DNA of 35,080 nt, taken from positions 1 to 35,080 of the IMG/VR virus record IMGVR_UViG_3300032269_000669; one strand, given 5' to 3'. Every line of letters begins with the position of its first letter. Position 1 is the first letter of the stretch. The notes under the pieces were generated by a model. It did not search any database. It was not told where the DNA came from and worked only from the letters and a program-made list of their open reading frames with translations. The translations under genes were made by a program, and so were the position numbers. Positions 1,934 through 16,867 of this stretch are shown piece by piece. This DNA comes from a virus (taxonomy: Duplodnaviria; Caudoviricetes).

Positions 1934-2380
1934 CTACTTGATTTTGATGGTCTTAGGTTGAAGCTCTTTAGGAACCTGCCGTTCGAGCTCAATTCGTAGT
2001 AACCCGTCTTCGTACGACGCGTTAACTACTTCTACATGCTCAGCAAGGGAGAAGTGCTTGTCAAAGTCCTTCTTCTTGATGCCATGGTGGATGTACTTGT
2101 ATTCATCAAGTACGGTTTCTTTGGTAATGCCTGATACGCGTAGTACGCCGTCTTTAACCTTAATCTCAAGGTCTTCTTTAGCAAACCCCGCAACGGCAAG
2201 TTCGATGACATACGCGTCTTCGTTTTTACCTTGGATAATGTTGTGGGGAGGGTATTTTGTATCTGATTCGCTCAGCATGTCTTGAAGCTGAGAGAACTGG
2301 TGATTCCAGCCAATTCCGCCGCTGATAAGCGAAGTAGTGATATTTGGGAACTGAACTGTATAGTTGTAGCCTGAAGCCAT
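1934..2380 (-). CDS. hsp20: small heat-shock protein, Hsp20/alpha-crystallin family
   Basis: KYPPHNI...YVIELAVAGF...YIHHGI...F.L.EHVEV..A.YEDGLLRIELER..P....PKTIKI, typical IbpA-like motifs; AAGGAG SD. Confidence 0.95.
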   Translation of the reverse strand: MASGYNYTVQFPNITTSLISGGIGWNHQFSQLQDMLSESDTKYPPHNIIQGKNEDAYVIELAVAGFAKEDLEIKVKDGVLRVSGITKETVLDEYKYIHHGIKKKDFDKHFSLAEHVEVVNASYEDGLLRIELERQVPKELQPKTIKIK

Positions 2381-2957: not shown

Positions 2958-3003
2958 GTACCTAGTGAACAACCGTTCACGCTAACCCTCTAAGGAGTAT
3001 CAA

Positions 3004-3285
3004 ATGAGCATATCTCTAAACGTACACGCGCAAGGCTTGGAAGTGGATACTACTATCCGCAAGGTGTGGGACTATGAACTACACGCCGACCCTCGCACCG
3101 CGTACTCACTACGCCTAACAACTACACAAGGGGACGAGGTTATCTTCTTCCTATCACTCAACCAAATCGAGTCAATAGGTGAGGCGATTGACTCTTACGT
3201 CGCTAAGGCTATCGACGTTCCCGCCCCTACTATCAACGACATCAAGCGCATGATTGAGGAAAACGAAGGGATATCACTATCATGA
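3004..3285 (+). CDS. hypothetical protein (first gene of the early island)
   Basis: 93 aa; strong SD TAAGGAG. Confidence 0.85.
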   Translation: MSISLNVHAQGLEVDTTIRKVWDYELHADPRTAYSLRLTTTQGDEVIFFLSLNQIESIGEAIDSYVAKAIDVPAPTINDIKRMIEENEGISLS

Positions 3286-3482
3286 AGGAAACTATCTTCT
3301 ACAACGGGTTCAACCTACTTGTTGACCTAATCGTCTTCGCGGTTACCGCGTTCTTCTTCTATCGTTCAGGTATTCAACGAGGCTTCTTCGAGGGAATGGA
3401 GGCGGAGGCGCTATCGCAGGAGTACACACGCAAGCACGCAGACGCTGACCTTGATAAGCATTGGGAAGGGGTTATCAAATGA
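3282..3482 (+). CDS. small membrane protein
   Basis: 66 aa; hydrophobic stretch FNLLVDLIVFAVTAFFFY; ATGA overlap. Confidence 0.8.
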   Translation: MKETIFYNGFNLLVDLIVFAVTAFFFYRSGIQRGFFEGMEAEALSQEYTRKHADADLDKHWEGVIK

Positions 3483-3631
3483 AGACCTGCAAGGTTCTCG
3501 ATTGTACCTCGACCGAGTTAGTCTATTCAGGAGTGGACGCCCTACTATTGGGCGTCCCTACTGAGGTCATATGCTATGACCACGCCAACGAGTACGCACT
3601 AATAAAGGACGCGATACATGTTGACGCGTAA
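3479..3631 (+). CDS. hypothetical protein (50 aa, Cys/His)
   Basis: MKTCKVLDCTSTELVYSGVDALLLGVPTEVICYDHANEY...; ATGA overlap; GGAAGGGG SD; below the ORF-track cutoff. Confidence 0.7.
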   Translation: MKTCKVLDCTSTELVYSGVDALLLGVPTEVICYDHANEYALIKDAIHVDA

Positions 3632-3803
3632 AGATTACAAGGCGATTGCCGACATCATTAACAACGAACGCGCAGACTTTCAGGAAGGGGAGGACGGTTA
3701 CGCCCTACTCAATGTCCTCTCCGCTCAGTTATCGCATTACATGGCAAGCGATAACCCTAACTTCAACCGCGCTAAGTTCTTAGAAGCTTGTGGGGTGAAC
3801 TAA
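3618..3803 (+). CDS. conserved small phage protein (TRKDY...DNPNF..KF..AC type)
   Basis: 61 aa; motif recalled from uncharacterised phage early proteins; AAGGA SD. Confidence 0.8.
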   Translation: MLTRKDYKAIADIINNERADFQEGEDGYALLNVLSAQLSHYMASDNPNFNRAKFLEACGVN

Positions 3804-4027
3804 TGGAAGGCTCAATGTATGGAAGCGGTATCTACAGCGACACCGTTAGCCTCACCGTCGAGTGCGAGTGCGGTAACGATTGGGAGCAGGACTTCAATAC
3901 GGACGACTACGGTAACGTGGAAGACACAGTCAAGTGCCCCTCATGTAACACAGAGTTTAACTTCGAGCGTGAAGGTGAGGACATCAACCAACCAGACCCA
4001 GACTACAACCCCTGGGACGACAACTAG
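3803..4027 (+). CDS. very acidic zinc-ribbon protein
   Basis: start at ATG 3803 (TAATG overlap); CECG...CPSC; D/E-rich. Confidence 0.8.
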   Translation: MEGSMYGSGIYSDTVSLTVECECGNDWEQDFNTDDYGNVEDTVKCPSCNTEFNFEREGEDINQPDPDYNPWDDN

Positions 4028-4046
4028 ACTTCCTTAGAGGGAAGAC

Positions 4047-4090
4047 CCTAGCCTTAGCGCCCTCCGTCGGTGCTAGGGCTAGGTTTGTTT
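4047..4090 (+). terminator. intrinsic terminator with loop CTCCGTC
   Basis: 15-bp stem CCTAGCCTTAGCGCC/GGTGCTAGGGCTAGG (two G-U) followed by TTTGTTT. Confidence 0.75.
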
Positions 4091-4146
4091 GTGTTGGGAC
4101 TATGGGCGGGCGGTGAAGCTGCACGTCCATAGTCCCAACACAAACA
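4086..4146. repeat. inverted repeat 1 (20-bp perfect arms starting TGTTTGTGTTGG)
   Basis: TGTTTGTGTTGGGACTATGG 4086-4105 / CCATAGTCCCAACACAAACA 4127-4146. Confidence 0.95.
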
Positions 4147-4159
4147 TTCGGTGTGGCGC

Positions 4160-4187
4160 TTGCATATCTGAGAGATAAGAGTATTGT
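4160..4187 (+). promoter_or_regulatory. sigma70-type promoter
   Basis: TTGCAT-16 bp-TATTGT upstream of the DUF932 gene. Confidence 0.5.
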
Positions 4188-4233
4188 TCGCATTGTCTAG
4201 CAATAACGCTAGCATATACAGAAAGAGACGGAC

Positions 4234-5238
4234 ATGGCACACAATCTAGAGCAATTCGACGGAAAGACCGCTTTCGCATTACGTGGAGAGCCAGCATGGC
4301 ATGGTCTTGCAAATGTACTATTCGATGAAGATGCACACGTTACAACCGCGGGAATGTTAGACGCGGCATATCTATCTAATTGGAATGTATCGCTTGAGCA
4401 AGTTGTACACCCACAAGGCTATCGCTCAATCTCTGATTCATTCATGGTTACACGCGATAATCCATTCGATAACGGCAAGGACGTTCTCGCCGTAGTTGGT
4501 GACCGTTACAAGGTATTTTCTAATGAAGACTTATTCTCATTCGGCGATAATCTTCTAGACGGTGGCGCACAATGGGAAAGCGCAGGTTCTATTAAGAATG
4601 GGCGCCAAGTGTTCGGTTCGCTTGCAATCGACCGCGAAATGATTCTTGACCCGCAAGGTATTGCAGATAAGTCTAAGTCTTATCTACTAGTAACTACATC
4701 ACACGACGGTTCAAGTTCAATTCAAGCTTGCGTTACACCTGTTCGCGTCGTATGCCAAAACACTCTCAATCTTGCACTCAATGGCGCAACACAATCATTC
4801 AAGGTTCGCCACACTCAAAAAGCAGATGGGCGCGTAGATGAGGCGCGTCGCGTACTAAGTTTAACACATGCGTATCTTGACGAGTTCGAGACCATGGCGC
4901 AGGAGTTGTACCAGACCGCAATCACAGATAAGCAATTCACCGATTTGGTGGAGGCTATCTACCCAGCGCCAGACAAGGATTCAAAAGCCGCGTTTACTAA
5001 GTGGACAGAAAAGACCGATTTCACTAAGGCACTCTATTTGAACAGCCCTACACAGGAGGGAATCACTGGCACAGCATGGGGCGCCCTTAATGCACTTACT
5101 GAGCGCATAGACTGGTTCCGCGCTAATGGTAAGGCGCAGACAGAAGGTCTCATGGTTGCAGCGAGTGGACTAGAGGCAGGAGTCAATGCCGAGAAGGCGC
5201 GTATCCTCCGCGCAGTCAAGGAACTAGTCGCAGCGTAA
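4234..5238 (+). CDS. DUF932 family phage/plasmid protein (TIGR03299-like)
   Basis: MAHNLE...PAWHGL...VGDRY...ESAGSIKNGRQVF...YLLVTTSHDGS...TPVRVVCQNTL...RHT...GTAWGALNALTE. Confidence 0.92.
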   Translation: MAHNLEQFDGKTAFALRGEPAWHGLANVLFDEDAHVTTAGMLDAAYLSNWNVSLEQVVHPQGYRSISDSFMVTRDNPFDNGKDVLAVVGDRYKVFSNEDLFSFGDNLLDGGAQWESAGSIKNGRQVFGSLAIDREMILDPQGIADKSKSYLLVTTSHDGSSSIQACVTPVRVVCQNTLNLALNGATQSFKVRHTQKADGRVDEARRVLSLTHAYLDEFETMAQELYQTAITDKQFTDLVEAIYPAPDKDSKAAFTKWTEKTDFTKALYLNSPTQEGITGTAWGALNALTERIDWFRANGKAQTEGLMVAASGLEAGVNAEKARILRAVKELVAA

Positions 5239-5248
5239 GCCTAGACAA

Positions 5249-5280
5249 CAAAGCCCCTCCGCGAGGAGGGGCTTTTTGTT
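5249..5280 (+). terminator. intrinsic terminator
   Basis: AAGCCCCTCC-GCGA-GGAGGGGCTT followed by TTTGTT. Confidence 0.9.
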
Positions 5281-5343
5281 TGTGTTGGGCTATATGGCTG
5301 GATGGCGAAGCGTTTCAGCCAGCCATATAGCCCAACACAAACA
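5277..5343. repeat. inverted repeat 2 (25-bp perfect arms starting TGTTTGTGTTGG)
   Basis: TGTTTGTGTTGGGCTATATGGCTGG 5277-5301 / CCAGCCATATAGCCCAACACAAACA 5319-5343. Confidence 0.95.
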
Positions 5344-5344
5344 T

Positions 5345-5416
5345 TATAACGATTGGATAACAATGTGAGCGACACGCGTGGAGAGAGTTGCGCCTGTCGG
5401 TAGCCTGTAATAGATT
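5345..5416 (+). promoter_or_regulatory. early promoter with inverted GTTAT-n6-GTTAT box
   Basis: ATAAC-gattgg-ATAAC 5346-5361; TTGCGC (5388)-17 bp-TAGATT (5411); 5' hairpin TACTAGGTT..AACCTAGTA follows. Confidence 0.7.
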
Positions 5417-5459
5417 GCTCTTACTAGGTTCAGACCAACCTAGTAGAGAGAGAACGACC

Positions 5460-5909
5460 ATGGAACAGACAACACTCTTCTATACACAGGAAGAGATGAA
5501 CAATGCTATCTCTACAACCCGCGACTTGGCTACCCGAGACGCACAACGCACAACGAGAGATACCCTTATCGAGGTACTTCGCGATTGCGCCCGTGAAGAT
5601 GTCGTAGACCGCGACACCGCACAGGCTATCTATGACCGCATAGCGAGCGCACTAGGACTATCCAGCGCCGTTATCGCTTCCCTCTATACAGTAGAGGTTA
5701 TCTATCAGGGTGAGGTACTTCTTGAAGTATCAGACATTGAGGCAGATGACGAGGACTCCGCAGAGTCTGAGGTATCAGGTAACCTTGAATTATCAGGCAC
5801 ACTCCGTATTACCACCGAGTACGGCGACCGTTCAGACACCGTTAGCGTTAGCGTTGATGGTTATGACCTAATTGACGAAGTTGAATACAACACCTACGAG
5901 CAACAGTAA
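5460..5909 (+). CDS. acidic hypothetical protein
   Basis: real start probably ATG 5460 (ACGACC-ATG); the ORF-track TTG at 5388 is the -35 box; D/E-rich C-terminal half. Confidence 0.85.
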   Translation: MEQTTLFYTQEEMNNAISTTRDLATRDAQRTTRDTLIEVLRDCAREDVVDRDTAQAIYDRIASALGLSSAVIASLYTVEVIYQGEVLLEVSDIEADDEDSAESEVSGNLELSGTLRITTEYGDRSDTVSVSVDGYDLIDEVEYNTYEQQ

Positions 5910-5920
5910 AGGAAACGACC

Positions 5921-6466
5921 ATGACTAAACTAGAAACATACAACAGCCTTATCGCAGAGGTAGAGCGCGACACCAGCCTAATAGGGTTACCAGCCTTAGA
6001 AGGTAGCCTCTATGAGAACTTGGAAAGCGAGGGGGTTACCCTAAGCCTACCCGACACACTAGAAATGGAGACTCCCCTCTCCGCTTTCAGTGATTACGCA
6101 ATCCGCGACGCAGTAATGACTCACGCTATGGAAGATGAACAGTTTTCCTTTGTCCTAGTCAATAAGATTACCCGCAGTGTTCACCCACGCAAGGATAGCC
6201 CTAGCGAGATTACTCAAGACGACCTTGAGGCGCTCGCAGTTTCAGCCCATGTGGGTACTATGTGGAAGCAATTCAGCCCAGCCATGAGCATTATGGCGTG
6301 GTCACAGCAGTTGGTAGAGGAAGAGCGCCCCGACCTAAAGGTGCCAAGCCTCATGGATATCACAGTAAGGCTAATCCAAGCCCGTGAGATGTTCGACTTC
6401 GCGGGAACGCGTAAGCAAATGCCAATAGATATGAAGGAGTCACTACTACAACAACTACAAGACTAA
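5921..6466 (+). CDS. hypothetical protein
   Basis: 181 aa; AAAGGA SD plus ACGACC-ATG. Confidence 0.85.
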   Translation: MTKLETYNSLIAEVERDTSLIGLPALEGSLYENLESEGVTLSLPDTLEMETPLSAFSDYAIRDAVMTHAMEDEQFSFVLVNKITRSVHPRKDSPSEITQDDLEALAVSAHVGTMWKQFSPAMSIMAWSQQLVEEERPDLKVPSLMDITVRLIQAREMFDFAGTRKQMPIDMKESLLQQLQD

Positions 6467-6470
6467 GGTT

Positions 6471-6498
6471 AGTGGGGCGTATGGTCGTGCGCCCCACT
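6471..6498 (+). promoter_or_regulatory. 3'UTR hairpin with loop complementary to the ACGACCAT start motif
   Basis: AGTGGGGCGTA-TGGTCG-TGCGCCCCACT. Confidence 0.6.
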
Positions 6499-6503
6499 CA
6501 CAC

Positions 6504-6549
6504 GGCCGCTGAGTTTATTAGCATGGGTAGCTCAGCGGCCCTTTTGTTT
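6504..6549 (+). terminator. intrinsic terminator
   Basis: GGCCGCTGAGTT...AGCTCAGCGGCC followed by CTTTTGTTT. Confidence 0.8.
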
Positions 6550-6651
6550 GTGTTGGCCCACCCACCCATCTATTTAATAATAGAACCCTTTTGAAATAAG
6601 CCTATTCGGCTTATTCCATTGGACATATGGAACATATGTCCAACACAAACA
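6545..6651. repeat. inverted repeat 3 (TGTTTGTGTTGG...CCAACACAAACA enclosing two internal hairpins)
   Basis: 12-bp arms 6545-6556 / 6640-6651; internal AATAAGCC..GGCTTATT and TTGGACATATG-GAA-CATATGTCCAA. Confidence 0.9.
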
Positions 6652-6830
6652 TGTGGGCGACATCACACAGCACCGCTATTGACAAGAGAGAGAGCCGTGT
6701 GCTAGGAGAGAGAGCGAGCGCGATAGGGCTATTGGGCTACTGCCAAATGTCGATAAATGGACATAGCGATACGACCAGACTTACGGATAGGGCTAGTGGG
6801 CTCTTATGTATTAAGAGAGAGCAGAGAGAG

Positions 6831-6898
6831 ATTGTTACCAAATTGTTATATTCGTGAGCGTGGCGGAAGTTGAGCCCCGTCCCCTTCTATGGTTCACT
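6831..6898 (+). promoter_or_regulatory. early promoter with GTTAC-n6-GTTAT box
   Basis: box at 6834-6849; TTGAGC (6870)-17 bp-TTCACT, same layout as the 2929 promoter. Confidence 0.55.
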
Positions 6899-6967
6899 CT
6901 CCCTATGAGTTACTACAAGGGTAATTCAGATAACCGCGCAGACCGCGCACAGAAAGGCATTACGACC

Positions 6968-8374
6968 ATGACCCTAGCACTATATGTAGAAAGCGTAGCC
7001 CCCGACCTCGACGGACTACCTGCCACTTATCAGACCGTCCTATTCCCTTCCACCGATAACACTATCGGTATCTACCACCGCCACTCCAACGGCTCAAAGG
7101 GTCGTGGACAGGTATGGAGTCCTATCACCGTAGATACTATGGTGCTTCCTGCTAGCCCTATCATCAAAGAGCCCGTAGCAGTAGTCCTATCAGACCGCGA
7201 CCTACAAATGGCGACCCTCGGCTCTATCACTAATATCGCAGTTAAAGCCATGTATGCCTATGAAAGCGCCAACCTCATTACCGCGACCGTGCCTCATAAT
7301 TGGTCGGTAACAATGCTTCGTGACCGCCTATTAGAACAAGACCCAACCCTATCGGACTTCATCACAGACAAGCGTAGGACTAGCCCCGTTGTATTTACAC
7401 AGACCCAAAATCTCGTAGAAAATGTCGTGGAGCAGACAGAGCCTATTAAGCCTATCGAACTCGTCAAAGAAGAAACAGAAGTAGCAACCGATAAGACTAT
7501 TGACGATATGGCGCTAGCCATGATTACCGTGCCTGACTCCAAGTGGGCTAGTGAGTACGTTCACCGCAAGATTAACGGCGTAAGCGACTTCGACATCTTC
7601 GACAAAGCACTAGAGACAGGTACAAACGTACTTATCGAAGGTGGCGCAGGGTCGGGTAAGACTATCTCGGTACAGGCGTACGCTAGTGCTAGAGGTATGC
7701 GTTACTTCAATGTCTCGAACTCAAACGGTATCGAGCCTTCTCAACTATTCGGTGGTTGGATACCACGTGAGGACGGACAGGGTTATCGTTGGCAGGACGG
7801 AGCAGTAACTATGCTCGTCCGTCATGGTGGAGTCTTACTTCTCAATGAGGTGAACTTCCTACCTACTAGGGTTAGCACCGTCCTATTCTCACTTCTCGAT
7901 TACCGCCGTGAAATCCAACTATTAGAGCATGGTGGCGAGACTATCAAGGCGCACCCAAACCTTCTAATCGTTGCCGATATGAACGCAGGGTACAAGGGCA
8001 CACAAGAACTAAATCAAGCCTTCAATGACCGCTTCGGTATCAAGTTAGAGTTTCCTTACGATAGGACTATTGAGAACAAGGTAGTCAATAACAAGTCACT
8101 ACTAACACTAGCCGACCAACTTCGTGAGCAGTACGAGAAGGAAGAACTTACTAGCCCTATCTCAACCCGTTCGCTAGTGGACTTCATGAAGAACGCTAGG
8201 ACTTTCGGTATTGACTTCGCTATCACTTCGTTCGTCAATGCCTTCCACAAAGAAGAACGTGGTGGAGTAAGACTAGCGTGCGAAACACACAAAGAACTTA
8301 TCGCAACAGACATGGGCGTTAAGATTATCTCTCACCCTGATAACGAGCAGTACCGCACAGAGGTATTGGCATAA
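6968..8374 (+). CDS. MoxR/CobS/CbbQ-like AAA+ ATPase with N-terminal extension
   Basis: Walker A GGAGSGKT; Walker B LLLNEVN; WQDG; MNAGYKGTQELNQAFNDRF; STR sensor II. Start at ATG 6968 supported by SD AGAAAGG and ACGACC-ATG. Confidence 0.9.
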   Translation: MTLALYVESVAPDLDGLPATYQTVLFPSTDNTIGIYHRHSNGSKGRGQVWSPITVDTMVLPASPIIKEPVAVVLSDRDLQMATLGSITNIAVKAMYAYESANLITATVPHNWSVTMLRDRLLEQDPTLSDFITDKRRTSPVVFTQTQNLVENVVEQTEPIKPIELVKEETEVATDKTIDDMALAMITVPDSKWASEYVHRKINGVSDFDIFDKALETGTNVLIEGGAGSGKTISVQAYASARGMRYFNVSNSNGIEPSQLFGGWIPREDGQGYRWQDGAVTMLVRHGGVLLLNEVNFLPTRVSTVLFSLLDYRREIQLLEHGGETIKAHPNLLIVADMNAGYKGTQELNQAFNDRFGIKLEFPYDRTIENKVVNNKSLLTLADQLREQYEKEELTSPISTRSLVDFMKNARTFGIDFAITSFVNAFHKEERGGVRLACETHKELIATDMGVKIISHPDNEQYRTEVLA

Positions 8375-10272
8375 TGCGCCGTCCACACAAGACAGACCAA
8401 CTCACCACTCTCGAATACGGGATTGGTTGGGAAGGTCGCCACAACGCCGAGACAGGCGAGTGGGAATATACAGACCGTTGGGGTCGTACTAAAGAGGAAA
8501 TCTTAGAGGACTACCAAGAACACAAATCCAAACTCGATAGTGTTAGCGGAGTCTATCAACGCGCTAACCGTATCATCACGGGAGATGAGATTACGGTAAC
8601 CGTAGTGGACGACCCCGACATGGATTGTCCTGCCCGTAGTAATGGCAGAGACATAGAGTTTAACGCTAACCTTATTGAGGACTTAGACACAGACTCTATT
8701 CTTAGCCTTCATGGGCTTAACTTCCACGAAATCGCACACGTCCTATATTCACCGCGCAAGGGCTCGGACTTAGGGCAATACGTAATTACTAATAAGATGA
8801 AGCGTGCTATGAACGTGCTTGAAGAGGCGCGTATCGAGACACTTCTCGCTAACAAGTATCCGATTACTAAACTATTCCTAGAGGCTAGCACTACCGACTA
8901 TCTATTAAAAGATAGCCCTAGTGAGTGGGGTAATCAGTACCTCACTATCACGGGTCGTACTTATCTAGGACTCGACCTTCGACAAATGGTTGCCGATAAG
9001 TTTATCGCTCAACACGGAGTCGAACTAGCAAACCGCCTACACAAACTTATCCACGAATACAAAGGGCTCGTATTCCCTACCGACTTCGACCGCGCTAAGA
9101 CTATCATCACAGAACTATCTGAAATCATAGGCAAAGACAACGAAGAACAGCCTCAATGGTCGAAAGAACAAGGACACGGGCACAACGGCGAAGAACGCGA
9201 TATGCCTACACGTGGCAGACCCGAAGGTGCTAAAGAGCAACAGCGCCTTCAAGATAAAGAAAAGGCTAACCCTAAGCAGTTAGAAGATGTTAGCCCTAGC
9301 GTTGGAGCAGGTGGCGCAGACAACTCAATTTACAATGGCGAAGAGCGTGACTTCACAGAAGAAGATAGTGCTATCGCTAAGAAACTTACAGAGCGTATGT
9401 CCGAGATTAAGAAGGACGAGTATGTAAAGCGACAAGTAAGTGAGACTCGTAAGGCTATCGTAGGTAGTGACGAAGCGCGTAGTGCTATGCGTAACGCCAC
9501 TTACAATAATGAGACTCCTAATGAAGTCTCAATAGGATTAGCGCGTAGGTTCGGTATTGAACTAGAGCGCATAGTCAGAGATAACGACCCGTATTGGGAG
9601 CGCCGTACTCGTAGTGGCAAACTCAACGTGGCGCGTACCATGACTCCCGACGTGAACGCTATTAGCAGTATGTTCGACACGTGGGATACAGGCAACGAGA
9701 ACACAGATATTGAAGCAGTAGTCCTATTGGATAACTCGTCCTCAATGGGTGGGCTCATGCGTAAAGTGTGTGAGAACGCATGGATTATCAAACGTGGTAT
9801 CGAGAGTATTCAGGGCGAAGTAACTATGTACTCCTTCTCTCATGAGAGCAAACTACTTTACAATAAAGTAGAACGCGCTAAGCCTAGAACTTATCGGTTC
9901 GTACAGGCAACAGGTAACACTAACCCTATTCGTGGGCTCATGGAAGCAGAGCGCACACTCACACAAAGCGAGAAGTCCGTGAAGTTACTATTCATAGTTA
10001 CAGACGGACAATGGGAGATGACCGAAGAGTGCGATAGCATTATCAAGAAGTTAAACGACAGGGGCATAGTTACCTGCGTAGTATTCTTAGGCGACTTATC
10101 TCACTACAAGAATATGATGAGCGATATTGAGTACACAGAGTACGCAACTAACACACTCAAATCATTACGGCACGGCGCTCGTATCTTTAAGAGCGTAGTA
10201 GAGCCTAGAGATGTACTAAAGATAGCAACCGAGTTAGTAAAGACTAACCTTAGCCGAAAGAGGGTGGCGTAA
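8374..10272 (+). CDS. CobT-like protein: N-terminal HEXXH metallopeptidase-like domain plus C-terminal vWA (MIDAS) domain
   Basis: FHEIAH...NVLEEARIE; acidic linker; RSGKL; LLDNSSSM (DxSxS); GNT; IVTDG; TAATG coupling to the AAA gene. Confidence 0.9.
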   Translation: MRRPHKTDQLTTLEYGIGWEGRHNAETGEWEYTDRWGRTKEEILEDYQEHKSKLDSVSGVYQRANRIITGDEITVTVVDDPDMDCPARSNGRDIEFNANLIEDLDTDSILSLHGLNFHEIAHVLYSPRKGSDLGQYVITNKMKRAMNVLEEARIETLLANKYPITKLFLEASTTDYLLKDSPSEWGNQYLTITGRTYLGLDLRQMVADKFIAQHGVELANRLHKLIHEYKGLVFPTDFDRAKTIITELSEIIGKDNEEQPQWSKEQGHGHNGEERDMPTRGRPEGAKEQQRLQDKEKANPKQLEDVSPSVGAGGADNSIYNGEERDFTEEDSAIAKKLTERMSEIKKDEYVKRQVSETRKAIVGSDEARSAMRNATYNNETPNEVSIGLARRFGIELERIVRDNDPYWERRTRSGKLNVARTMTPDVNAISSMFDTWDTGNENTDIEAVVLLDNSSSMGGLMRKVCENAWIIKRGIESIQGEVTMYSFSHESKLLYNKVERAKPRTYRFVQATGNTNPIRGLMEAERTLTQSEKSVKLLFIVTDGQWEMTEECDSIIKKLNDRGIVTCVVFLGDLSHYKNMMSDIEYTEYATNTLKSLRHGARIFKSVVEPRDVLKIATELVKTNLSRKRVA

Positions 10273-10274
10273 TG

Positions 10275-10285
10275 CCAACACAAAC
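10275..10285 (-). repeat. single copy of the boundary motif (CCAACACAAAC)
   Basis: immediately after the vWA stop and before a block of small genes. Confidence 0.7.
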
Positions 10286-10299
10286 CGAAAGGATAACTA

Positions 10300-10482
10300 A
10301 TGGGTAATCTAGGTGAAGAACTATCGCCTATGGACTACGCAGAGGCTATGAGGGAAGTATTAAACCGCCTTCATGACCTACTTCAACAAGATGTATTCCA
10401 AACCGAAAATGCGGAGAACTTAGTACAGACCGCCAAAGACTATTTATTCTACTTAGAAGATAACAGAAGGGTAATCCTATGA
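10300..10482 (+). CDS. hypothetical protein
   Basis: 60 aa; AAAGGA SD. Confidence 0.75.
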   Translation: MGNLGEELSPMDYAEAMREVLNRLHDLLQQDVFQTENAENLVQTAKDYLFYLEDNRRVIL

Positions 10483-10727
10483 GTCAGCACCACTTCGTAG
10501 TCATGTACGACACAGAGACTAAACAATGGGATTGGTTCCAAGAACTAGAAGAAGGAGCGTTCCCGTCAGGTGGCGTGTACTCAACAGAACTTCAAGAGTG
10601 GTTAAAGCCTAGTGCTAGCGAACACTTAATGGACATGGACACTAAGGCTAGTGAACAACTAGGACTAGGTATCCGCTTCTTAAACTATTGTGAGGACAAA
10701 GATGTACGCCTTAAAAGTAACCGTTGA
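10479..10727 (+). CDS. hypothetical protein
   Basis: 82 aa; ATGA overlap. Confidence 0.8.
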   Translation: MSQHHFVVMYDTETKQWDWFQELEEGAFPSGGVYSTELQEWLKPSASEHLMDMDTKASEQLGLGIRFLNYCEDKDVRLKSNR

Positions 10728-10908
10728 GGTTGATGAAGAGATACGTATATGGGACGGCGAGCCTTCCACTAATCACAAAGTAGTGGAGTACGCTCGTAAG
10801 CAGTTAGAGAAAGAACTAAAGAAGTTAGCAATACCGCACCGAATAACACTAAAACAAGTAGATGAGAAAGATATACAAACCGAACTAGAGAAATTGAGGA
10901 AATACTAA
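10702..10908 (+). CDS. hypothetical protein
   Basis: MYALKVTVEV...; GAGGA SD before ATG 10702; TAATG coupling downstream. Confidence 0.7.
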   Translation: MYALKVTVEVDEEIRIWDGEPSTNHKVVEYARKQLEKELKKLAIPHRITLKQVDEKDIQTELEKLRKY

Positions 10909-11522
10909 TGGGCTTAGATATGTATTTATACGCGGAGAAGTACGTCAGTAATGCTAGCGATAGCATGGTTGAACGCTTCCCACAATACGCAAAAGAAAGA
11001 GAGATGTACCGAGAGGTCGTTAAGGCTATCGGTGGAGAGATGTTGCCTACCCCTGAATACGGTGGCATGTCTATTAGTAAATGCGTTGGATATTGGCGCA
11101 AGGCTAATGCTATTCACGGTTGGTTCGTGAGAGAGTTAGCAGACGGCATAGACGAGTGCCAACGTATAGATGTAGGTTGGGACGATATAACTCGATTGAG
11201 AGATGAGTGTATTAACGCGCTTGCTAACCGTAATAACGCAGTACCAACCGAAGAGCGCACTAAGACTATCAGCATGGACGATAAGAGCCCCGAAGAGATG
11301 ATGAACGTAATCATGGAAGAGTGGGGTAATCAGAAGGCTAAGGCTAACTCAACCGTGTTAGATACAAGCGACCCACTCGCGCCTACTGCTGGCTTCTTCT
11401 TTGGTGGTACAGAGAAAGACGAGTACTATTATCAGGATATTGAATACACGCTAGATGTTCTTAACTCGCTTCTAGCCTTCAATGATACAGAGTGGTCGTT
11501 CTACTACCGCGCTAGTTGGTAA
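10908..11522 (+). CDS. conserved phage protein (MGLDMY...YWRKANAIHGWF...FFFG...YRASW family)
   Basis: recognisable motif set of a widespread uncharacterised phage family. Confidence 0.85.
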   Translation: MGLDMYLYAEKYVSNASDSMVERFPQYAKEREMYREVVKAIGGEMLPTPEYGGMSISKCVGYWRKANAIHGWFVRELADGIDECQRIDVGWDDITRLRDECINALANRNNAVPTEERTKTISMDDKSPEEMMNVIMEEWGNQKAKANSTVLDTSDPLAPTAGFFFGGTEKDEYYYQDIEYTLDVLNSLLAFNDTEWSFYYRASW

Positions 11523-11534
11523 TAACTAAATAGA

Positions 11535-11800
11535 TTTCCCGTTGGGATTGGTCAGACCCGAACGTACAAAAGTGAGCATGACTAACTTTAATTAGTTAGT
11601 TGAGCAATAGTCGAATAGTAGAGTGTGCGAGGTTTTCTTCGCTTGGTAAGCAGTACTCAATGGGAGAGCAAGTAAAGAGAGTAGTCCTAGTGGGATAGGA
11701 CAGGGTCAATGGTGTTATCGCTCCGCCCTACCTAACTATGTTAGGTTGTGCCAATGCCTGTCTATCCATAAGACCACGCTGTACCCACTAGGACTCTAAC
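11535..11800 (+). ncRNA. candidate structured non-coding RNA
   Basis: about 295-nt gap in a tightly packed operon; AGTCCTAGTGGG/CCCACTAGGACT 12-bp closing stem with nested GGATAG-GACAGG/CCTGTC-TATCC and ACCTAAC/GTTAGGT stems. Confidence 0.45.
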
Positions 11801-11817
11801 TAATCTAAGGAGAGACA

Positions 11818-11964
11818 ATGAACGAAGAGATAATTACCTGCTCAAATTGTGGGTACGAAACAAGCGAAGTTGATACCAATACCGAGTTGTGCCAAACCTG
11901 TAAGAACGCTTACGATTTAGGGTGGAGCGACCGCGAATACAAAGGAGAAGAACAAAGTGTATGA
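11818..11964 (+). CDS. small zinc-finger protein (48 aa)
   Basis: MNEEIITCSNCG...LCQTCKNAYDLGW; TAAGGAG SD. Confidence 0.75.
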   Translation: MNEEIITCSNCGYETSEVDTNTELCQTCKNAYDLGWSDREYKGEEQSV

Positions 11965-12259
11965 CCATGATTTAACACTAAAGACACGTCACCTAGCAAC
12001 CAATGAGATTATCAAGCGTTACCGTGACGAATACACAGAACTATTAACAGAACTCAAAGCAACAAGCCCTAAGAACTACACAAGTCTTGCCCGTACTCGT
12101 CTAAAGAATAACCACCTTCAAGAGTGGAGAGATGAGCAAGAGAAACAAGCGGAGAGCGCAGGTATTGGTACTGCTCGCCGTCGCAAAGAGCGTTCACTAG
12201 AGAGACACAGAGAGCGCGTACGCAAGTTAGAGCAAGAGTTAGGTATCACTAATGCCTAG
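11957..12259 (+). CDS. basic helical hypothetical protein
   Basis: 100 aa; AAAGGAG SD; R/K/E-rich coiled C-terminus. Confidence 0.8.
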   Translation: MYDHDLTLKTRHLATNEIIKRYRDEYTELLTELKATSPKNYTSLARTRLKNNHLQEWRDEQEKQAESAGIGTARRRKERSLERHRERVRKLEQELGITNA

Positions 12260-12428
12260 ATACAACGTACGACTATCCACTATTCAGTATTCATGGGCAG
12301 TAATTACCGCAGACACAGAAGAGGAAGCCATAGGCAAAGCGTTCAAGGAGAGAGAGAACTCGCGCTATTGGTCTGAGGCTTCTATGCCTGAGCATGAAGT
12401 AAAGTTATTTGGCGACACGGACGACTAA
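12252..12428 (+). CDS. hypothetical protein (58 aa)
   Basis: MPRYNVRLSTIQYSWAVITADTEEEAIGKAF...; the V.A.TEEEA motif is common in small phage proteins. Confidence 0.7.
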   Translation: MPRYNVRLSTIQYSWAVITADTEEEAIGKAFKERENSRYWSEASMPEHEVKLFGDTDD

Positions 12429-12430
12429 AA

Positions 12431-12441
12431 GTTTGTGTTGG
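12431..12441 (+). repeat. single copy of the boundary motif (GTTTGTGTTGG)
   Basis: 2 nt after the stop at 12428. Confidence 0.7.
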
Positions 12442-12485
12442 CGCACCACCCGTAGTACGCTTAAACCCTAACCGAGAGGAAACCT

Positions 12486-12773
12486 ATGGCAAAGAAAGTA
12501 AATGCGGTATTTGACGCAACACTAAAGAAGAACCCTGAAAAAGGTGGAGCATGGCTAGCCCGTGTGACTACTTATGATGAGGGGTTAGAGGACGGTAATG
12601 TAATCGTTTCAACAGCGTGGTCTAACGCGAGCGCAGGTAAGCGTTGGATTAAAGAGATGGTTGCAAAGATGACTCCACGCAAGTCTGTAAAAATGGTTGC
12701 AGGAGCTGACCTTGATGTTAAAGGAAAGCCCATGAGTTTTGCTGGACAAGTGGCGTTCAAGAGAGAGATTTAA
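12486..12773 (+). CDS. basic hypothetical protein
   Basis: 95 aa; GAGGA SD. Confidence 0.8.
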   Translation: MAKKVNAVFDATLKKNPEKGGAWLARVTTYDEGLEDGNVIVSTAWSNASAGKRWIKEMVAKMTPRKSVKMVAGADLDVKGKPMSFAGQVAFKREI

Positions 12774-12776
12774 TAG

Positions 12777-12872
12777 ATGTCTTTCATAGACCCTATTGTT
12801 CCTAACCCTGATTGGGGTAATCCTAGTCCCAATGTAGACCCTACAGAGTGGGAAGAAGAAGAAGATGAGTGA
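12777..12872 (+). CDS. tiny Pro/acidic peptide (31 aa)
   Basis: MSFIDPIVPNPDWGNPSPNVDPTEWEEEEDE fills the gap between neighbours. Confidence 0.45.
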   Translation: MSFIDPIVPNPDWGNPSPNVDPTEWEEEEDE

Positions 12873-13116
12873 AGAGAGAGAAACTTTACCTATGGCTGGC
12901 GGTTGCGGTGATAACTGCGCTTGCAATCAAGAAGAGAGAGAAGAGAGTAATCCTTCTTATGCCACAGTAGATGTATTTGTTGAACAGTACTCAAAGGCAT
13001 TAAGAGAGTATTTACGCCGTACGCTTACCACAGACGGCACACACCACATAGAGGATTTAGGCGCTCATACTGCTAGTTTTAGCGAAGCGTTTGCCACTAT
13101 CGCTGGTTACTTTTAA
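12865..13116 (+). CDS. hypothetical protein
   Basis: 83 aa; GGCGDNCAC motif. Confidence 0.7.
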   Translation: MSEERETLPMAGGCGDNCACNQEEREESNPSYATVDVFVEQYSKALREYLRRTLTTDGTHHIEDLGAHTASFSEAFATIAGYF

Positions 13117-13162
13117 GAGAGAGAGATGAGAGAGCGTTAAAGAGAGTGGTTCATATCTCCAA

Positions 13163-13200
13163 GGACGGTCATGATGGTGCCTTTCTCACCTAGCCGTACC
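13163..13200 (+). promoter_or_regulatory. 3'UTR element antisense to the RBS and start of the AAA gene
   Basis: TGCCTTTCT 13178-13186 complements AGAAAGGCA 6951-6959; GGTCATG 13167-13173 complements CATGACC 6967-6973. Confidence 0.6.
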
Positions 13201-13214
13201 TGCGTTTAATCATA

Positions 13215-13254
13215 AGAAAGCCCCCTTGCAACTCGCTAGCAAGGGGGCATTTCT
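13215..13254. terminator. bidirectional intrinsic terminator between converging arms
   Basis: AGAAA-GCCCCCTTGC..GCAAGGGGGC-ATTTCT. Confidence 0.85.
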
Positions 13255-13262
13255 GTATTAGA

Positions 13263-15296
13263 TTATTGGTTATCTTTAATTAACTTCACTTCGCAAGCGT
13301 CAGTAGTGCAATAAGCTTCCCCAACAGCATCGGCGGCCATACCTGCGTACACACCAGCAAAGTCGATTGGGAAGAGAGACATACGCGCTTCCTCATACTC
13401 CTCAGCAGTAATTTGTGTGTAAGGCATTTGTGGATAGACCATGTTGCCACTTGGTAGGAAAGAGACAGTTTTTAATTGTCCGTCATACATGTGTAGCACC
13501 TTGTCGATAGCCTTAGATTCCGTTTCAGGGTCAAAAGAGATAGTTACAGAAACAGAGTTATCAGACCAATAGCGTTGCGCTTGTGCTGCGAGTGCCATTT
13601 TCTCGTAGATAGAGACTTCTTTCTCCGAGCGAATTGCATTAGATTCCACAGGAAAGAACACAACTGAAGTCGTATCTGGTGACTCTGAAGCGGGCTCTAC
13701 ACGATACTGCGCCATTCTAAAGAGAGGTAGCATCGGGTCTGTATTAGAAAAGCGGATTGCACGTAGGAAGTACTTACCGCCAACAGGCCAGTGCACTCCA
13801 GGTGACTCACCAGCTAGGATAGATACAGTTCCAGATGGTTTTACTGTAGTTGTTTTAATAGATTCGCGGATACCAAGCCACTCTGAGTAGCCCTTGTCGT
13901 ATCCCTGAATTACCTTGTAACCCTCATCCATCCATGTACGAAGTACGGGCAAGCCCTTGTTGTCAGCAAAGTTAGCAACACCAGAGATTGAAGTTCCAAT
14001 ACGACGGTTACGTTGCATAATTGCATTTGTCTCTTCCCAATGTGTAGGCAAGAGAGTGACAGTCTTAGCGTAGAGATAAGCAAACTTGAGAGTTCTCTTA
14101 AAGTCTTCCATAGATTCATGGCGGTTGAGGTAGGTCTCTACGAGAGTACAACACTCAAAGGATTCAAGAGACTGCTCAGCGCAAGGGTTGTAACCCATTA
14201 CACGCCAGTCCTTATTGTTCGGAGCGTCAGCCAAACGACCGTATTGACGAGAGACATCCATCCAAACAACCCCAGGTTCTCCGTTACGAGCAATACCATC
14301 TACGATTGCAGATAGGTCTTGACCAACAGATACTTCAACAGAGTTGTTAGACATCCAAGCCCAACCAGGTGACTTAGGGTCATAAGAGTTGCGGTCAGGG
14401 AAAGCCTCAGCGTTCTTAAGATTAAGGAAGTCAGCGTCATCAATACGACCCATAAGAAGTTCCGCGCTTCGGCGCACGTTGCCCGAAACTACGCAAACTC
14501 CAATTAGATTACCAAGGTCAGCAATATCTACACGGCTTAGTTTCTCACCAACGCGAGAGCCAAGTATGCGACGGATATGATTGTGAAGGCGCTCTAGCGG
14601 TTCGTGTCCCGCTGCGGTTCCACCAAAGGTTTTAATCGGAGTGCCTGAAGGTCGGATGAGCGAGTAGTCGAATACAGGGCACTTCGTATCTGCTTTAAGG
14701 TAGCTATTGATGAGGGTGGCAACGGATTCAACCCAGCCTTCTCGGGTGTCGGGGATGACATATGTGTCTCCAATTTCGCATGGGTAGATGGTGAAGTCTT
14801 TATCTGCACCCTTGTCGTCAAAGCCAACGCCTACTCCAAGCATGGATGCTTCCATGAGGAAAGCAAAAGGCTTGGCAGGGTCGTTCTTGGTCATAGAGTT
14901 CGTGGATACAAAAGCACAGTTCTGAAGAGCCGCTGAGTTGCGTTGCTCATTTACAAGATGTGTACCCATAACCCAAAGACCACGTCCAGGCGGAGTCCAC
15001 TTTAGATTCCACAGACGGTCAAAAGCTTCCTTAGCAGAAGCCGCGGCCTTAGAGTCAGACCAAGGTAAGCGGTTAAGCTTAGCGTGGTCTTTCTGCAAAG
15101 AATACATGCCGTTAATAACGCGCTCGCACACGTCAGTCCAAGTCTCTTTAGTGCCATCTTCTTTCAGACGAGAGTAAGTTCTTAGGAAAGTAATCTCCCC
15201 CACGGAGTTGCCTGCCGCATCTTGGTAGCCCCAAGGCACCTTCTTCTCCTTGTAACCTGCTACAAAGTCGTCCGCTAGACGAAATGACAAAGCCAT
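13263..15296 (-). CDS. nrdJ: class II (adenosylcobalamin-dependent) ribonucleoside-triphosphate reductase, monomeric type
   Basis: FLRTYSR; PPGRGLW; LQNCAF; GVGVGFD; GNVRRSAE; YNPCAEQ; RRIG; TTVKPSGTVS; C-terminal CTTDAC. Confidence 0.95.
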   Translation of the reverse strand: MALSFRLADDFVAGYKEKKVPWGYQDAAGNSVGEITFLRTYSRLKEDGTKETWTDVCERVINGMYSLQKDHAKLNRLPWSDSKAAASAKEAFDRLWNLKWTPPGRGLWVMGTHLVNEQRNSAALQNCAFVSTNSMTKNDPAKPFAFLMEASMLGVGVGFDDKGADKDFTIYPCEIGDTYVIPDTREGWVESVATLINSYLKADTKCPVFDYSLIRPSGTPIKTFGGTAAGHEPLERLHNHIRRILGSRVGEKLSRVDIADLGNLIGVCVVSGNVRRSAELLMGRIDDADFLNLKNAEAFPDRNSYDPKSPGWAWMSNNSVEVSVGQDLSAIVDGIARNGEPGVVWMDVSRQYGRLADAPNNKDWRVMGYNPCAEQSLESFECCTLVETYLNRHESMEDFKRTLKFAYLYAKTVTLLPTHWEETNAIMQRNRRIGTSISGVANFADNKGLPVLRTWMDEGYKVIQGYDKGYSEWLGIRESIKTTTVKPSGTVSILAGESPGVHWPVGGKYFLRAIRFSNTDPMLPLFRMAQYRVEPASESPDTTSVVFFPVESNAIRSEKEVSIYEKMALAAQAQRYWSDNSVSVTISFDPETESKAIDKVLHMYDGQLKTVSFLPSGNMVYPQMPYTQITAEEYEEARMSLFPIDFAGVYAGMAADAVGEAYCTTDACEVKLIKDNQ

Positions 15297-15403: not shown

Positions 15404-16867
15404 TTAAGGCTTATCTTCTATGATTTCCTTAATAACTTCCGTGGTTTGCATTTCGTTAAGACCCCCTTCAGGTAACTCCCGAAGCACATTTGCTCGGTCT
15501 CCGAAGATAGAACTTAGCACACCTGCCGAACCTTGGCGCTCCACAGTCATGCGAATAAACTCACGTGAGTCATCCAGTTCTTTGATGGTTTTAATCAATT
15601 TGAAAAGGCGGTCAATCTCCTGAGAAACGTTAGGGTCAGCGTATCCACCACTCATTTCTTCAGCAAAACGCATAAAAGCAACGCGTTGTCCCTGCATTTC
15701 TACTATTGCATTGAGTAGTGACTTCAGTTGGTCTTTAGTCTTTACTTCAATAGGAAGGTTAAAAGCACATAGGTTATCGGGCTTAAACGCGGGGCAGTTA
15801 GCAGCTACAAAACAAGTGTTGCAGTTACGAATACTGCTTGCTTTGGACTTAACAATAGGTACGTCTTTGATGGTTCCATCGTCATCAATTTCGGTTTTTA
15901 ATTCGTATCCAAATACAGGTAAGTTGCCTATTTCTGATGGGTCGCGGGGCATAAACTTCCGCACCTGAGGGGCCTTATTATCAGGTACAGCAAGGGGTGT
16001 TTCCCCACTTTGTTCCACTTCACTCCACTTGCTATTATCATGATAAGAGTTATCGTCACTCATGCCATTTACCTTTCTTTCGTACTGGTTGTACGACCAA
16101 ACTGCCAAACGACATACCTCTTGGTCATCATCTTCTAAAATCAAATCTATGTCTAATCCAGCTTTGATATAAACGTTGCGGTATCGGGCGCGAGCCTGCT
16201 CCTTCATCCTCTTGGGGTAACGCTTAATCTGCATCCCATCCCAAACAATGGTTTCACCGTTAAGCATAGGGCTAAGCCACGCTAGGGTGCTAGCGGTCTC
16301 TGCTGATACCTGCCGCAAGTTATCTGGGCGGGCTGACCCTAGCACATGGAATCTGGTTCCTTGTGTACGAGACAGGGTTCTAGTGACCATAGAAAGCTGG
16401 GTGTTGTCCTCTAAGGACTCACCTGGCAATCCTATATCTAAGTAGTGCTCGGACATCTCAGTAAGGCTTGCAAGGCCAGCTTCAGGGTTCCAGATAGGCA
16501 AGAACTTACCTGGTGGGACCTCTGACCAACAAGTCTTGCGCTGTTCCAAAACAAACGCCTGGCTGGTGTACCTGGCTTCAATCTCTGTAAATGAGGCTAT
16601 GCGGTCAATGTTGTTAGCAATAAACTCCTCATACATAGCGGCAAACGCTTCCATATCCAATGACCCAGCTTCAAGCTCTTTAGGCAAGCCTGGGTAGGCA
16701 TAGATGGTGAAGTCATCCTTAAAGTAGTTTTCTAATAGATAAGGTCCACGCTTGGGCAAACCCCTCTTGAAAAGTCGATAAAAGCTAACACCAACGTGCC
16801 TGGCTGAAGTACTTTCTAATAAAGTACGATTGCTAGGAACCTCAGCACCCAGATAAATGAGCTGCAT
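15404..16867 (-). CDS. TGT/DpdA-like TIM-barrel domain fused to a Cys-cluster/helical C-terminal domain
   Basis: RFHVLG...ETASTLAW..PMLNG resembles the H.LG..DS..W..G end of transglycosylase-like barrels; CNTC-x5-CP-x7-C cluster. Confidence 0.55.
   Translation of the reverse strand: MQLIYLGAEVPSNRTLLESTSARHVGVSFYRLFKRGLPKRGPYLLENYFKDDFTIYAYPGLPKELEAGSLDMEAFAAMYEEFIANNIDRIASFTEIEARYTSQAFVLEQRKTCWSEVPPGKFLPIWNPEAGLASLTEMSEHYLDIGLPGESLEDNTQLSMVTRTLSRTQGTRFHVLGSARPDNLRQVSAETASTLAWLSPMLNGETIVWDGMQIKRYPKRMKEQARARYRNVYIKAGLDIDLILEDDDQEVCRLAVWSYNQYERKVNGMSDDNSYHDNSKWSEVEQSGETPLAVPDNKAPQVRKFMPRDPSEIGNLPVFGYELKTEIDDDGTIKDVPIVKSKASSIRNCNTCFVAANCPAFKPDNLCAFNLPIEVKTKDQLKSLLNAIVEMQGQRVAFMRFAEEMSGGYADPNVSQEIDRLFKLIKTIKELDDSREFIRMTVERQGSAGVLSSIFGDRANVLRELPEGGLNEMQTTEVIKEIIEDKP

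Follow-up and report, generated by a model that had tools for sequence, protein, structure and literature searches.

The DNA analysed here is a 35,080-base IMG/VR virus record (IMGVR_UViG_3300032269_000669), the whole of which is called the window; its estimated completeness is 36%. A block of small early-type genes occupies 3004-13116 on the plus strand and converges on a minus-strand replication and nucleotide block with RNR, a queuine-tRNA-ribosyltransferase-like gene, DNA polymerase I, a helicase, and a primase. A preliminary description had claimed that the early operons of this block end in sequences antisense to the ribosome-binding sites (RBSs) and starts of early genes. Such complementarities between 3' untranslated regions (3'UTRs) and leaders do exist in the window, and in relatives of this phage they are kept in kind and changed in sequence, the two partners co-varying. 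One of the 3'UTR motifs lies in a three-helix RNA that is new to Rfam and shows clear covariation.

Early operons and complementary 3'UTR motifs

The predicted early operons and their main genes are as follows; no plus-strand terminator-like site was found within 6968-13117.

3004-4027, plus strand: early operon 1, five small open reading frames (ORFs; 3004, 3282, 3479, 3618, 3803) without family match
4234-5238, plus strand: DUF932 gene, early operon 2
5460-6466, plus strand: early operon 3, genes 5460-5909 and 5921-6466
6968-13116, plus strand: AAA block, the fourth early operon, with an AAA_5 ATPase, gene 8374-10272, and about nine small genes
6968-8374, plus strand: AAA_5/MoxR-type ATPase gene
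8374-10272, plus strand: gene of a 632-amino-acid protein (g8374)

The sequences proposed to pair, with the hairpins around them, are the following (SD, Shine-Dalgarno sequence).

2986-2996, plus strand: SD region CCCUCUAAGGA of gene 3004, the first gene of operon 1 and target of the operon 1 motif; predicted single-stranded, 3' of a hairpin at 2965-2980
4029-4044, plus strand: small 3'UTR hairpin with the 11-nucleotide (nt) anti-RBS UCCUUAGAGGG (4031-4041)
4047-4083, plus strand: operon 1 intrinsic terminator, whose 7-nt loop holds TCCGTC
5454-5461, plus strand: ACGACCAU at the start of gene 5460, the first gene of operon 3; recurs at 5915-5922 and 6962-6969
6471-6498, plus strand: operon 3 3'UTR hairpin, whose apical AUGGUCGU (6481-6488) complements its own first start and the AAA start
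6504-6540, plus strand: operon 3 terminator hairpin, followed by a U-tract
6951-6973, plus strand: AAA_5 ATPase initiation region, with SD AGAAAGGCA (6951-6959), ACGACCAU (6962-6969), and CAUGACC (6967-6973)

All seven complementary pairs quoted in the preliminary description are exact in the sequence. The 11-mer TCCTTAGAGGG (4031-4041) after operon 1 is the reverse complement of CCCTCTAAGGA (2986-2996), and each occurs once in the window. At the end of the AAA block, TGCCTTTCT (13178-13186) complements AGAAAGGCA (6951-6959), and GGTCATG (13167-13173) complements CATGACC (6967-6973). The 8-mer ATGGTCGT lies at 6481-6488 as described, whereas its complement ACGACCAT begins at 5454, 5915, and 6962 and ends on the AT of each ATG; the positions given earlier for it (5460, 5921, and 6968) are those of the ATGs. 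A 3'UTR motif complementary to the SD/start region of the operon's own first gene is found in three of the four operons (11, 8, and 9 nt). The remaining pair, TCCGTC (4063-4068) in the operon 1 terminator loop with GACGGA (4227-4232) before the DUF932 ATG, has to be given up: it is noise, because GACGGA and its complement occur 10 and three times in the window (13 times altogether), and chance, because the DUF932 leader has no match of at least 7 nt to the upstream 3'UTR in any of 24 relatives.

Each of the four 3'UTRs (U1-U4) was compared with 17 leaders of the window by longest complementary run and RNAduplex energy against 300 dinucleotide shuffles. For U1 with the 11-mer, the longest run gave P = 0.013 and the duplex energy P = 0.27; the corresponding values were 0.95 and 0.60 for U2, for which no pair had been claimed, 0.42 and 0.37 for U3 with the 8-mer, and 0.10 and 0.08 for U4 with the 9-mer. 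Judged on the window alone, the complementarities thus look weak. When each 3'UTR was compared only with the leader of its own operon's first gene (5000 shuffles), the run of 11 nt in operon 1 was reached by 25 shuffles, that of 4 nt in the DUF932 operon by 4940, that of 8 nt in operon 3 by 179, and that of 9 nt in the AAA block by 20, which combine to P = 0.00045 (Fisher) for a hypothesis framed after the data had been seen. In whole-locus scans many equally long matches appeared, and ranking by longest exact match did not single out the AAA leader; leader-restricted tests were used instead.

The weak values for the 8-mer and 9-mer and the non-significant duplex energies are what would be expected if the matches were an artefact of composition, arising between pyrimidine-rich 3'UTRs and purine-rich leaders, with the three-helix RNA serving an unrelated role, for example as a 3' stabiliser. 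In addition, any SD of the AGAAAGG type would match CCUUUCU, the sequence with which the 16S rRNA of many Gram-positive bacteria ends. The comparison with relatives bears directly on this explanation.

The three-helix RNA and the AAA leader

In the phage collection searched, no close DNA relatives of the window were found, and its nearest proteins are distant Streptomyces-phage homologs (DUF932, 50% identity; DNA polymerase, 39%). Near-identical DNA was found in freshwater and lake metagenomes, in 16 runs of six studies, none of which is listed as an RNA run. Neither the AAA protein nor gene 5921, each used singly as a query, gave a match in IMG/VR. An IMG/VR scan for the inverted 12-mer pair TGTTTGTGTTGG/CCAACACAAACA gave seven contigs, five of which encode DUF932 (57-73% identity) and two also the AAA protein, and a query alignment of three AAA proteins gave 32 viral and 55 metagenome loci. 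The resulting set of about 95 contigs represents a family of ~95-kb freshwater phages and includes two complete genomes with terminal repeats, of 95,920 bp (G003, contig L018) and 97,993 bp (G006, contig L116). The former lacks both the three-helix RNA and the AAA-ATPase.

Across the relatives, the stretch between the last plus-strand gene of the early block and the terminator that it shares with RNR is conserved. Its elements in the window are listed below.

13132-13207, plus strand: conserved three-helix RNA, just 5' of the terminator
13132-13137/13202-13207, plus strand: helix P1
13142-13144/13157-13159, plus strand: helix P2
13162-13169/13193-13201, plus strand: helix P3
13176-13179/13187-13190, plus strand: inner hairpin GGUG/CACC with loop CCUUUCU (13180-13186)
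13215-13253: terminator hairpin common to the early block and the minus-strand RNR gene
13263-15296, minus strand: RNR gene

The 9-mer complementary to the AAA SD consists of the 7-nt loop CCUUUCU and two stem bases of the inner hairpin. A free-energy fold of the window reproduces the three-helix structure, including GGUG-CCUUUCU-CACC, and a MAFFT alignment of 21 copies gave three helices with 18 pairs, of which 10 show compensatory changes. A covariance model (R1), searched over 91 sources (1.08 Mb), found 39 copies, all on the plus strand; a pattern scan combined with the model added six contigs, for a total of 45. In an alignment of 27 distinct rows, which was fitted to the model and agrees with that of MAFFT, 97.7% of the cells are paired, both sides change in 12 of the 18 pairs, and the covariation score is 0.529, which none of 500 shuffles reached and which compares with at most 0.14 for slid partners. 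The invariant U-G pairs, which would become A-C if read from the minus strand, assign the RNA to the plus strand. Neither 13132-13207 nor the copy in contig L103 matches any Rfam 15 family at E values up to 1 to 10, and the sub-threshold hits fall on the terminator only. Inspection by eye revealed no convincing promoter 5' of P1. The RNA was found in 39 of the 52 loci that have both the AAA gene and the block end, and in the most distant clade it begins 18 nt after the AAA-g8374 pair. We also considered a small minus-strand ORF or an inverted leader copy at 13160-13190, and rejected both: no ORF is conserved, the motif shifts between loops, and the U-G pairs fix the plus strand. Purine repeats of the GAGAGAG type occur in intergenic regions (5446-5453, 6685-6712, 6811-6837, and 13113-13134), also beside or inside the three-helix RNA, and in P3 inserts of L023, L024, L026, L028, and L068. 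By eye, such tracts could pair with the CU-rich loops through one G-U as an alternative or self-masking conformer, a feature that is not universal.

The loops of the RNA are CU-rich and clade-specific (CCUUUCU, CCCCUUC, CCUUCC, CUUCCUUUC, ACUUUC), and the SD regions of the AAA genes differ correspondingly. For the AAA leader, the mean longest run was 7.36 nt with the cognate loops and 5.72 nt with non-cognate ones (n = 25, P = 0.0002), reaching at least 7 nt in 68% of cases; with one representative per clade the values were 7.50 and 5.74 nt (n = 12; 0 of 20,000 permutations, P < 5e-5). The leaders of DUF932 (6.62 vs 5.55 nt, n = 16, P = 0.002; clade representatives, P = 0.10) and g10908 (6.59 vs 5.59 nt, n = 17, P = 0.0004; clade representatives, P = 0.01) matched the loops as well. 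Three control leaders gave no cognate advantage: g8374 (5.08 vs 4.97 nt, n = 13, P = 0.38; clade representatives, P = 0.92), g12486 (5.25 vs 5.38 nt, n = 24, P = 0.79; 0.61), and RNR (5.11 vs 5.16 nt, n = 28, P = 0.68; 0.87). The leader/loop pairs differ by source, being AGAAAGGCA/UGCCUUUCU in the window, GAGAAAGGU/ACCUUUCUC in L023, GAAAGGAAG/CUUCCUUUC in L047, CGAAGGGGU/ACCCCUUCG in L035, GAAGGGCU/AGCCCUUC in L091, and GAAAGUA/UACUUUC in L021, and, depending on the clade, either the P2 or the P3 loop contains the complementary stretch. The SD half of the claimed AAA pairing thus holds and co-varies with the leader, whereas GGTCATG forms part of the RNA's conserved core and, by eye, ignores the start codons of the relatives. 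As a separate observation by eye, the AAA leaders of relatives carry a small GC hairpin (GCGCC-N3-4-GGCGC) just 5' of the SD, conserved with changes on both sides.

These results argue against a composition artefact. The RNR, g12486, and g8374 leaders also carry SDs and yet stay at 5.1-5.3 nt with no cognate advantage, which equally argues against the CCUUUCU loop as a generic anti-SD mimic. Same-genome controls lie below the adjacent and own pairs described in the next section, flanks outside the SD co-vary, the window pair AUGGUCGU/ACGACCAU is not SD-like, and the class-2 loops (CCCCUUCGG) are unlike the 16S tail. Even with the persistence of the RNA in a genome without the AAA gene on its side, we regard an artefact as unlikely.

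A pairing that is real may still serve another end than control of initiation, namely protection or processing of the mRNA, through closure of its 5' and 3' ends against 5' exonuclease or endonuclease, as proposed for hbs of Bacillus subtilis, or through an RNase III site. The comparative evidence applies equally to this explanation. Each predicted early 5'UTR opens with a stable hairpin, as is typical of stabilised transcripts, and leaves the SD region unpaired (hairpins at 2965-2980, 5421-5446, 6906-6928, and 6936-6948), and a 5'/3'-UTR interaction of hbs is reported to control RNase action (PMC5737220). However, the longest run overlaps positions -19 to -2 relative to the start (mostly -18 to -5, the SD region) in 22 of the 25 AAA leaders and does not lie at the 5' end. 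Such placement is needed for a block of initiation and not for pure end protection, and we consider a role in protection or processing instead of translational shut-off rather unlikely.

Own and adjacent leaders and the cassette joints

The 90 nt before the joint that leads into the AAA cassette served as the 3'UTR to be compared with the AAA leader. The adjacent 3'UTR gave a mean run of 6.48 nt, with at least 7 nt in 55% and at least 8 nt in 24% (n = 33). Within the same genome, the remaining 3'UTRs gave 5.75 nt (22% and 8%; n = 126, P = 0.004 vs adjacent), and those of other genomes 5.52 nt (14% and 3%; n = 10,176, P = 2e-5 vs adjacent). Examples of 3'UTR/AAA leader pairs are CCCUUCGG/CCGAAGGG, CCCCUUCAA/UUGAAGGGG, and GCCUCUC/GAGAGGC. 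The 3'UTR of this preceding cassette also matches its own first leader (cognate 6.82 vs 5.77 nt, n = 22, P = 0.0001), and at the homologous place three unrelated pairs co-vary, GGAGAUACUA/UAGUAUCUCC, GAAGGGGGUA/UACCCCCUUC, and AAGGGAUAAGG/CCUUAUCCCUU. The window pair ACGACCAU/AUGGUCGU serves its own operon and the AAA gene at once. Co-evolved pairing at this place, with the own first leader and with that of the AAA gene, is therefore borne out in the relatives. The preliminary description had the operon 3 hairpin displaying the 8-mer; in the predicted fold, which has a 12-bp stem and a GGUC tetraloop, the 8-mer comprises the loop and two weak pairs on each side and is not a free loop. In the folds of L040, L024, and L045, the motif is single-stranded or looped just 5' of the terminator, a more favourable arrangement than that of the window.

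Own-operon pairing was also measured over 110 cassettes whose first genes were called with a crude caller. The mean run between own 3'UTR and own leader was 6.00 nt, with at least 9 nt in 6.4%, compared with 5.70 nt and 3.8% within genomes (P = 0.024) and 5.54 nt and 1.1% across genomes (P = 0.0006); agreement was weak when 220-nt windows were used for a coarser comparison (7.37 vs 7.06 nt, P = 0.007). Because runs of at least 9 nt between own 3'UTR and own first leader exceed the cross-genome rate family-wide, the 11-mer of operon 1, which forms the apical part of the predicted hairpin 4029-4044, is credible as a pair of the same kind as the 10-11-mers of the relatives. Operon 1 itself is not conserved among the relatives. 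Three contigs of close strains carry its 11-mer (4031-4041) without change; in one of them the neighbouring sequence has 59 differences over 860 nt. Taking the family together, the statement that early operons end antisense to RBSs is supported for the AAA block, for operon 3, and for own-operon pairs as a class, and falls for the DUF932 operon; it does not extend to every operon. The supported pairs appear co-evolved rather than generic, as had been proposed, because each motif is matched to its own leader: cognate pairs exceed permuted ones, in permutations that are not corrected for phylogeny, and both partners have changed at homologous places.

The early cassettes are separated by repeated joints, of which the window contains the following.

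4086-4146: long inverted repeat with conserved 12-mer arms TGTTTGTGTTGG/CCAACACAAACA
5277-5343: second long inverted repeat with the same arms, after the terminator at 5250-5275
6545-6651: conserved 12-mer arms for the third time, here enclosing a non-palindromic interior

An inverted 12-mer pair follows every early terminator (4047-4083, 5250-5275, and 6504-6540), and 126 such junctions were found in relatives; half sites lie at 10275-10286 (minus strand) and 12430-12441 (plus strand). The interiors are variable, with a perfect palindrome of 26-28 nt in two joints and none in the third, and in relatives the arms are conserved and the interiors differ. Close-strain contigs break at the inverted repeats of the joints. 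In runs X2-X4, 143 bases at 11814-11958 are replaced by seven letters, and in the X4 strain contig a different upstream gene (L026-like) is joined to the three-helix RNA exactly at its 5' edge (13121); both changes suggest module exchange at fixed joints.

Since the early region is built of such joints (terminator, long inverted repeat with 12-mers, promoter), the complementary sequences might themselves be DNA-level inverted repeats that bracket coding units as protein-binding or cassette recombination sites. In T4-type phages, PeSL (promoter-early stem-loop) cassettes combine a promoter with a terminator stem-loop in joints that mediate shuffling, and they recombine at these joints (Arbiol et al., 2010; PMC2839356). 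The early genes described here are likewise separated by repeated terminator stem-loops and promoters, and the upstream gene exchanged at 13121 fits a recombining joint. Unlike PeSL, the present joints carry a long inverted repeat with 12-mer arms, and the PeSL abstract gives no RBS-complementary 3'UTR motif. Several observations fit RNA rather than a DNA repeat. Pairing of AGAGAGGCA with UGCCUUUCU (L024, L026, L053, and L068) needs G-U, which would be a mismatch in DNA; the anti-leader sequence sits in the loops of an RNA with covarying helices and invariant U-G pairs; and it shifts between two loops with complementarity kept. Moreover, inverted repeats would invert a cassette and not exchange it. 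We therefore hold DNA-level repeats to be very unlikely as the source of the complementarities.

Other features were noted around the joints, where the early promoters were read by eye only. In relatives, DnaA-box-like palindromes (TGTGGATAAcTTTATnCACA, or TTATCCACA twice) lie between the right 12-mer arm and each early promoter (L018 8838-8860, 9185-9207, 10590-10612, 12405-12427, and 12665-12687; L009 4443-4475), and the window has TTGTTATA/TTATAAC-type motifs instead at the same place (2886-2910, 5345-5366, and 6833-6852). The Rfam Phe_leader model scores 57.9 bits (gathering threshold 55) on 5245-5357 of the minus strand, across a long palindrome and a bidirectional terminator; this match looks like a structural false positive, because the aligned 'leader peptide' has a single Phe codon. 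Elsewhere in the window, the queuine tRNA-ribosyltransferase-like (DpdA-type) gene (15404-16867, minus strand) adjoins RNR and hints at modified DNA bases, and an Hsp20-family gene lies at 1934-2380 (minus strand).

Proposed role and known systems

The closest analogue is the pairing of 5'- and 3'UTRs in icaR mRNA of Staphylococcus aureus, in which the 3'UTR sequence UCCCCUG is complementary to the SD region of the same mRNA (Ruiz de los Mozos et al., 2013; PMC3868564). Like icaR, the phage operons have a pyrimidine-rich 3'UTR motif (here UCCUUAGAGGG, CCUUUCU, CCCCUUCGG, and others) complementary to the SD of their own mRNA. They differ in that icaR is one bacterial gene with experimental proof (toeprinting and RNase III), while the present pattern is computational and extends over several early operons of 1-6 kb across a phage family, once within a dedicated three-helix RNA. 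To our knowledge, pairing of both untranslated ends of an mRNA has been documented for only a few bacterial genes (icaR and hbs). No 3'UTR-RBS pairing in phage early operons was described in the full-text literature searched, which excludes most subscription journals and supplements.

A second comparison is offered by the c4 antisense RNA of phages P1 and P7, which is made from the same operon as its target and binds around the RBS through complementary sequences that are likely in loops; loop and target differ together between related phages, a basis of heteroimmunity, according to a review (PMC12197685). The three-helix RNA resembles c4 in that its loops complement the RBS region of a gene in the same operon, and it differs in lying at the 3' end and in having no Rfam match, so that it is not a C4 member. 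The c4 RNA lies upstream of its target and gives its name to the Rfam family C4. In plasmid R1, the full-length hok message, which encodes a toxin, is kept silent by its 3' fbi/tac element through pairing with the 5' translation region; trimming of the 3' end activates the message, and the Sok antisense RNA controls it. A 3' element complementary to the 5' translation region of the same mRNA is common to hok and the phage operons, whereas no toxin or family match was found among the small ORFs here, no sign of trimming appeared, and no antisense gene was noticed, though no search aimed at one was made. The sib site of phage lambda retroregulates int through an RNase III hairpin in read-through transcripts, its effect depending on which RNAs extend to it. 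Like sib, the phage motifs are 3' sites downstream of a gene that they are proposed to control at the RNA level, by RBS pairing here and by an RNase III hairpin there.

From the sequence comparisons, it seems somewhat more probable than its opposite that pairing of the 3'UTR with the RBS of its own operon shuts off translation of the first gene or alters the stability of its mRNA, by fold-back or through a 3' fragment. We favour the view that the completed transcript, or such a fragment, lowers translation of the first gene. Leader and motif would lie on one transcript, and the finished mRNA would fold back so that the motif lying 3' of the last stop codon and 5' of the terminator pairs with the RBS of the first gene; alternatively, a released 3' fragment would pair with the leader. 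The duplex would form in vivo and lower initiation, as in icaR, rather than only stabilise the mRNA. Expression of the first gene may then depend on completed transcription of the operon, as a timer or feedback. For the AAA gene, the preceding operon's 3'UTR supplies a further complementary motif, and the own-operon motif is housed in the loops of the three-helix RNA.

The motif stands immediately 5' of an intrinsic terminator in the folds of the window, L040, L024, L045, and 13117-13262, which is the layout of small RNAs derived from 3'UTRs. The three-helix RNA and the 3'UTR motifs might accordingly be released as small RNAs with mainly host mRNAs as targets, the match to phage leaders being secondary; a seed beside an intrinsic terminator would suit this role, and phage small RNAs acting on host targets are reviewed in PMC12197685. 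Host targeting leaves the co-variation with the phage's own leaders unexplained, and we consider it highly improbable as the main function.

Several points weigh against the pairing of 3'UTRs with their own RBSs as a general control. Two of the window motifs are partly closed in predicted folds, the 8-mer lying largely within the 12-bp stem of its hairpin and the 11-mer inside a 6-bp hairpin. The window-only statistics against all leaders are weak, and the own-leader hypothesis was sharpened post hoc. Among the cassettes before AAA, only seven of 22 reach at least 8 nt with their own leader. Over all 126 junctions, comparison of the adjacent 3'UTR with the 260-nt 5' region of the next cassette shows no effect (7.51 vs 7.53 nt), and the DUF932 operon has no pairing between own 3'UTR and leader in relatives (n = 17). 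The three-helix RNA was missing in 13 of the 52 loci with AAA gene and block end, five representatives of which stayed negative with filters off. The complete genome G006 keeps the RNA (L116 8992-9074) with no AAA homolog in the whole record, so the RNA must have some partner besides the AAA gene; in G006 its loop ACCUUUC is complementary to GAAAGGT ahead of an ATG at ~7170, probably that of the first gene of the last operon, and the DUF932 and g10908 leaders, as noted, match the loops too. The permutation tests are not tree-aware, and much of the signal lies between two deep classes, representing perhaps 8-12 independent events. Finally, operon limits rest on predicted terminators, and the 110 first genes on crude calls.

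The timing of phage early genes is commonly attributed to promoters, anti-sigma factors, and proteins. We would extend own-RBS pairing only tentatively to a protein-free completion timer, in which the RBS would be open during transcription and closed once the terminator is reached. The three-helix RNA would then also act in trans on the DUF932 and g10908 leaders, and private, co-evolving address pairs would let each operon be timed independently.

Co-evolving 3'UTR-to-RBS pairs appear to be at work in several early operons across an entire family of abundant, uncultured freshwater phages. The pairs would provide natural sets of orthogonal RBS/anti-RBS sequences, and the three-helix RNA a new RNA family for annotation. 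If the proposed control is true, these phages would follow an RNA-only rule that couples translation of the first gene to completion of its operon.

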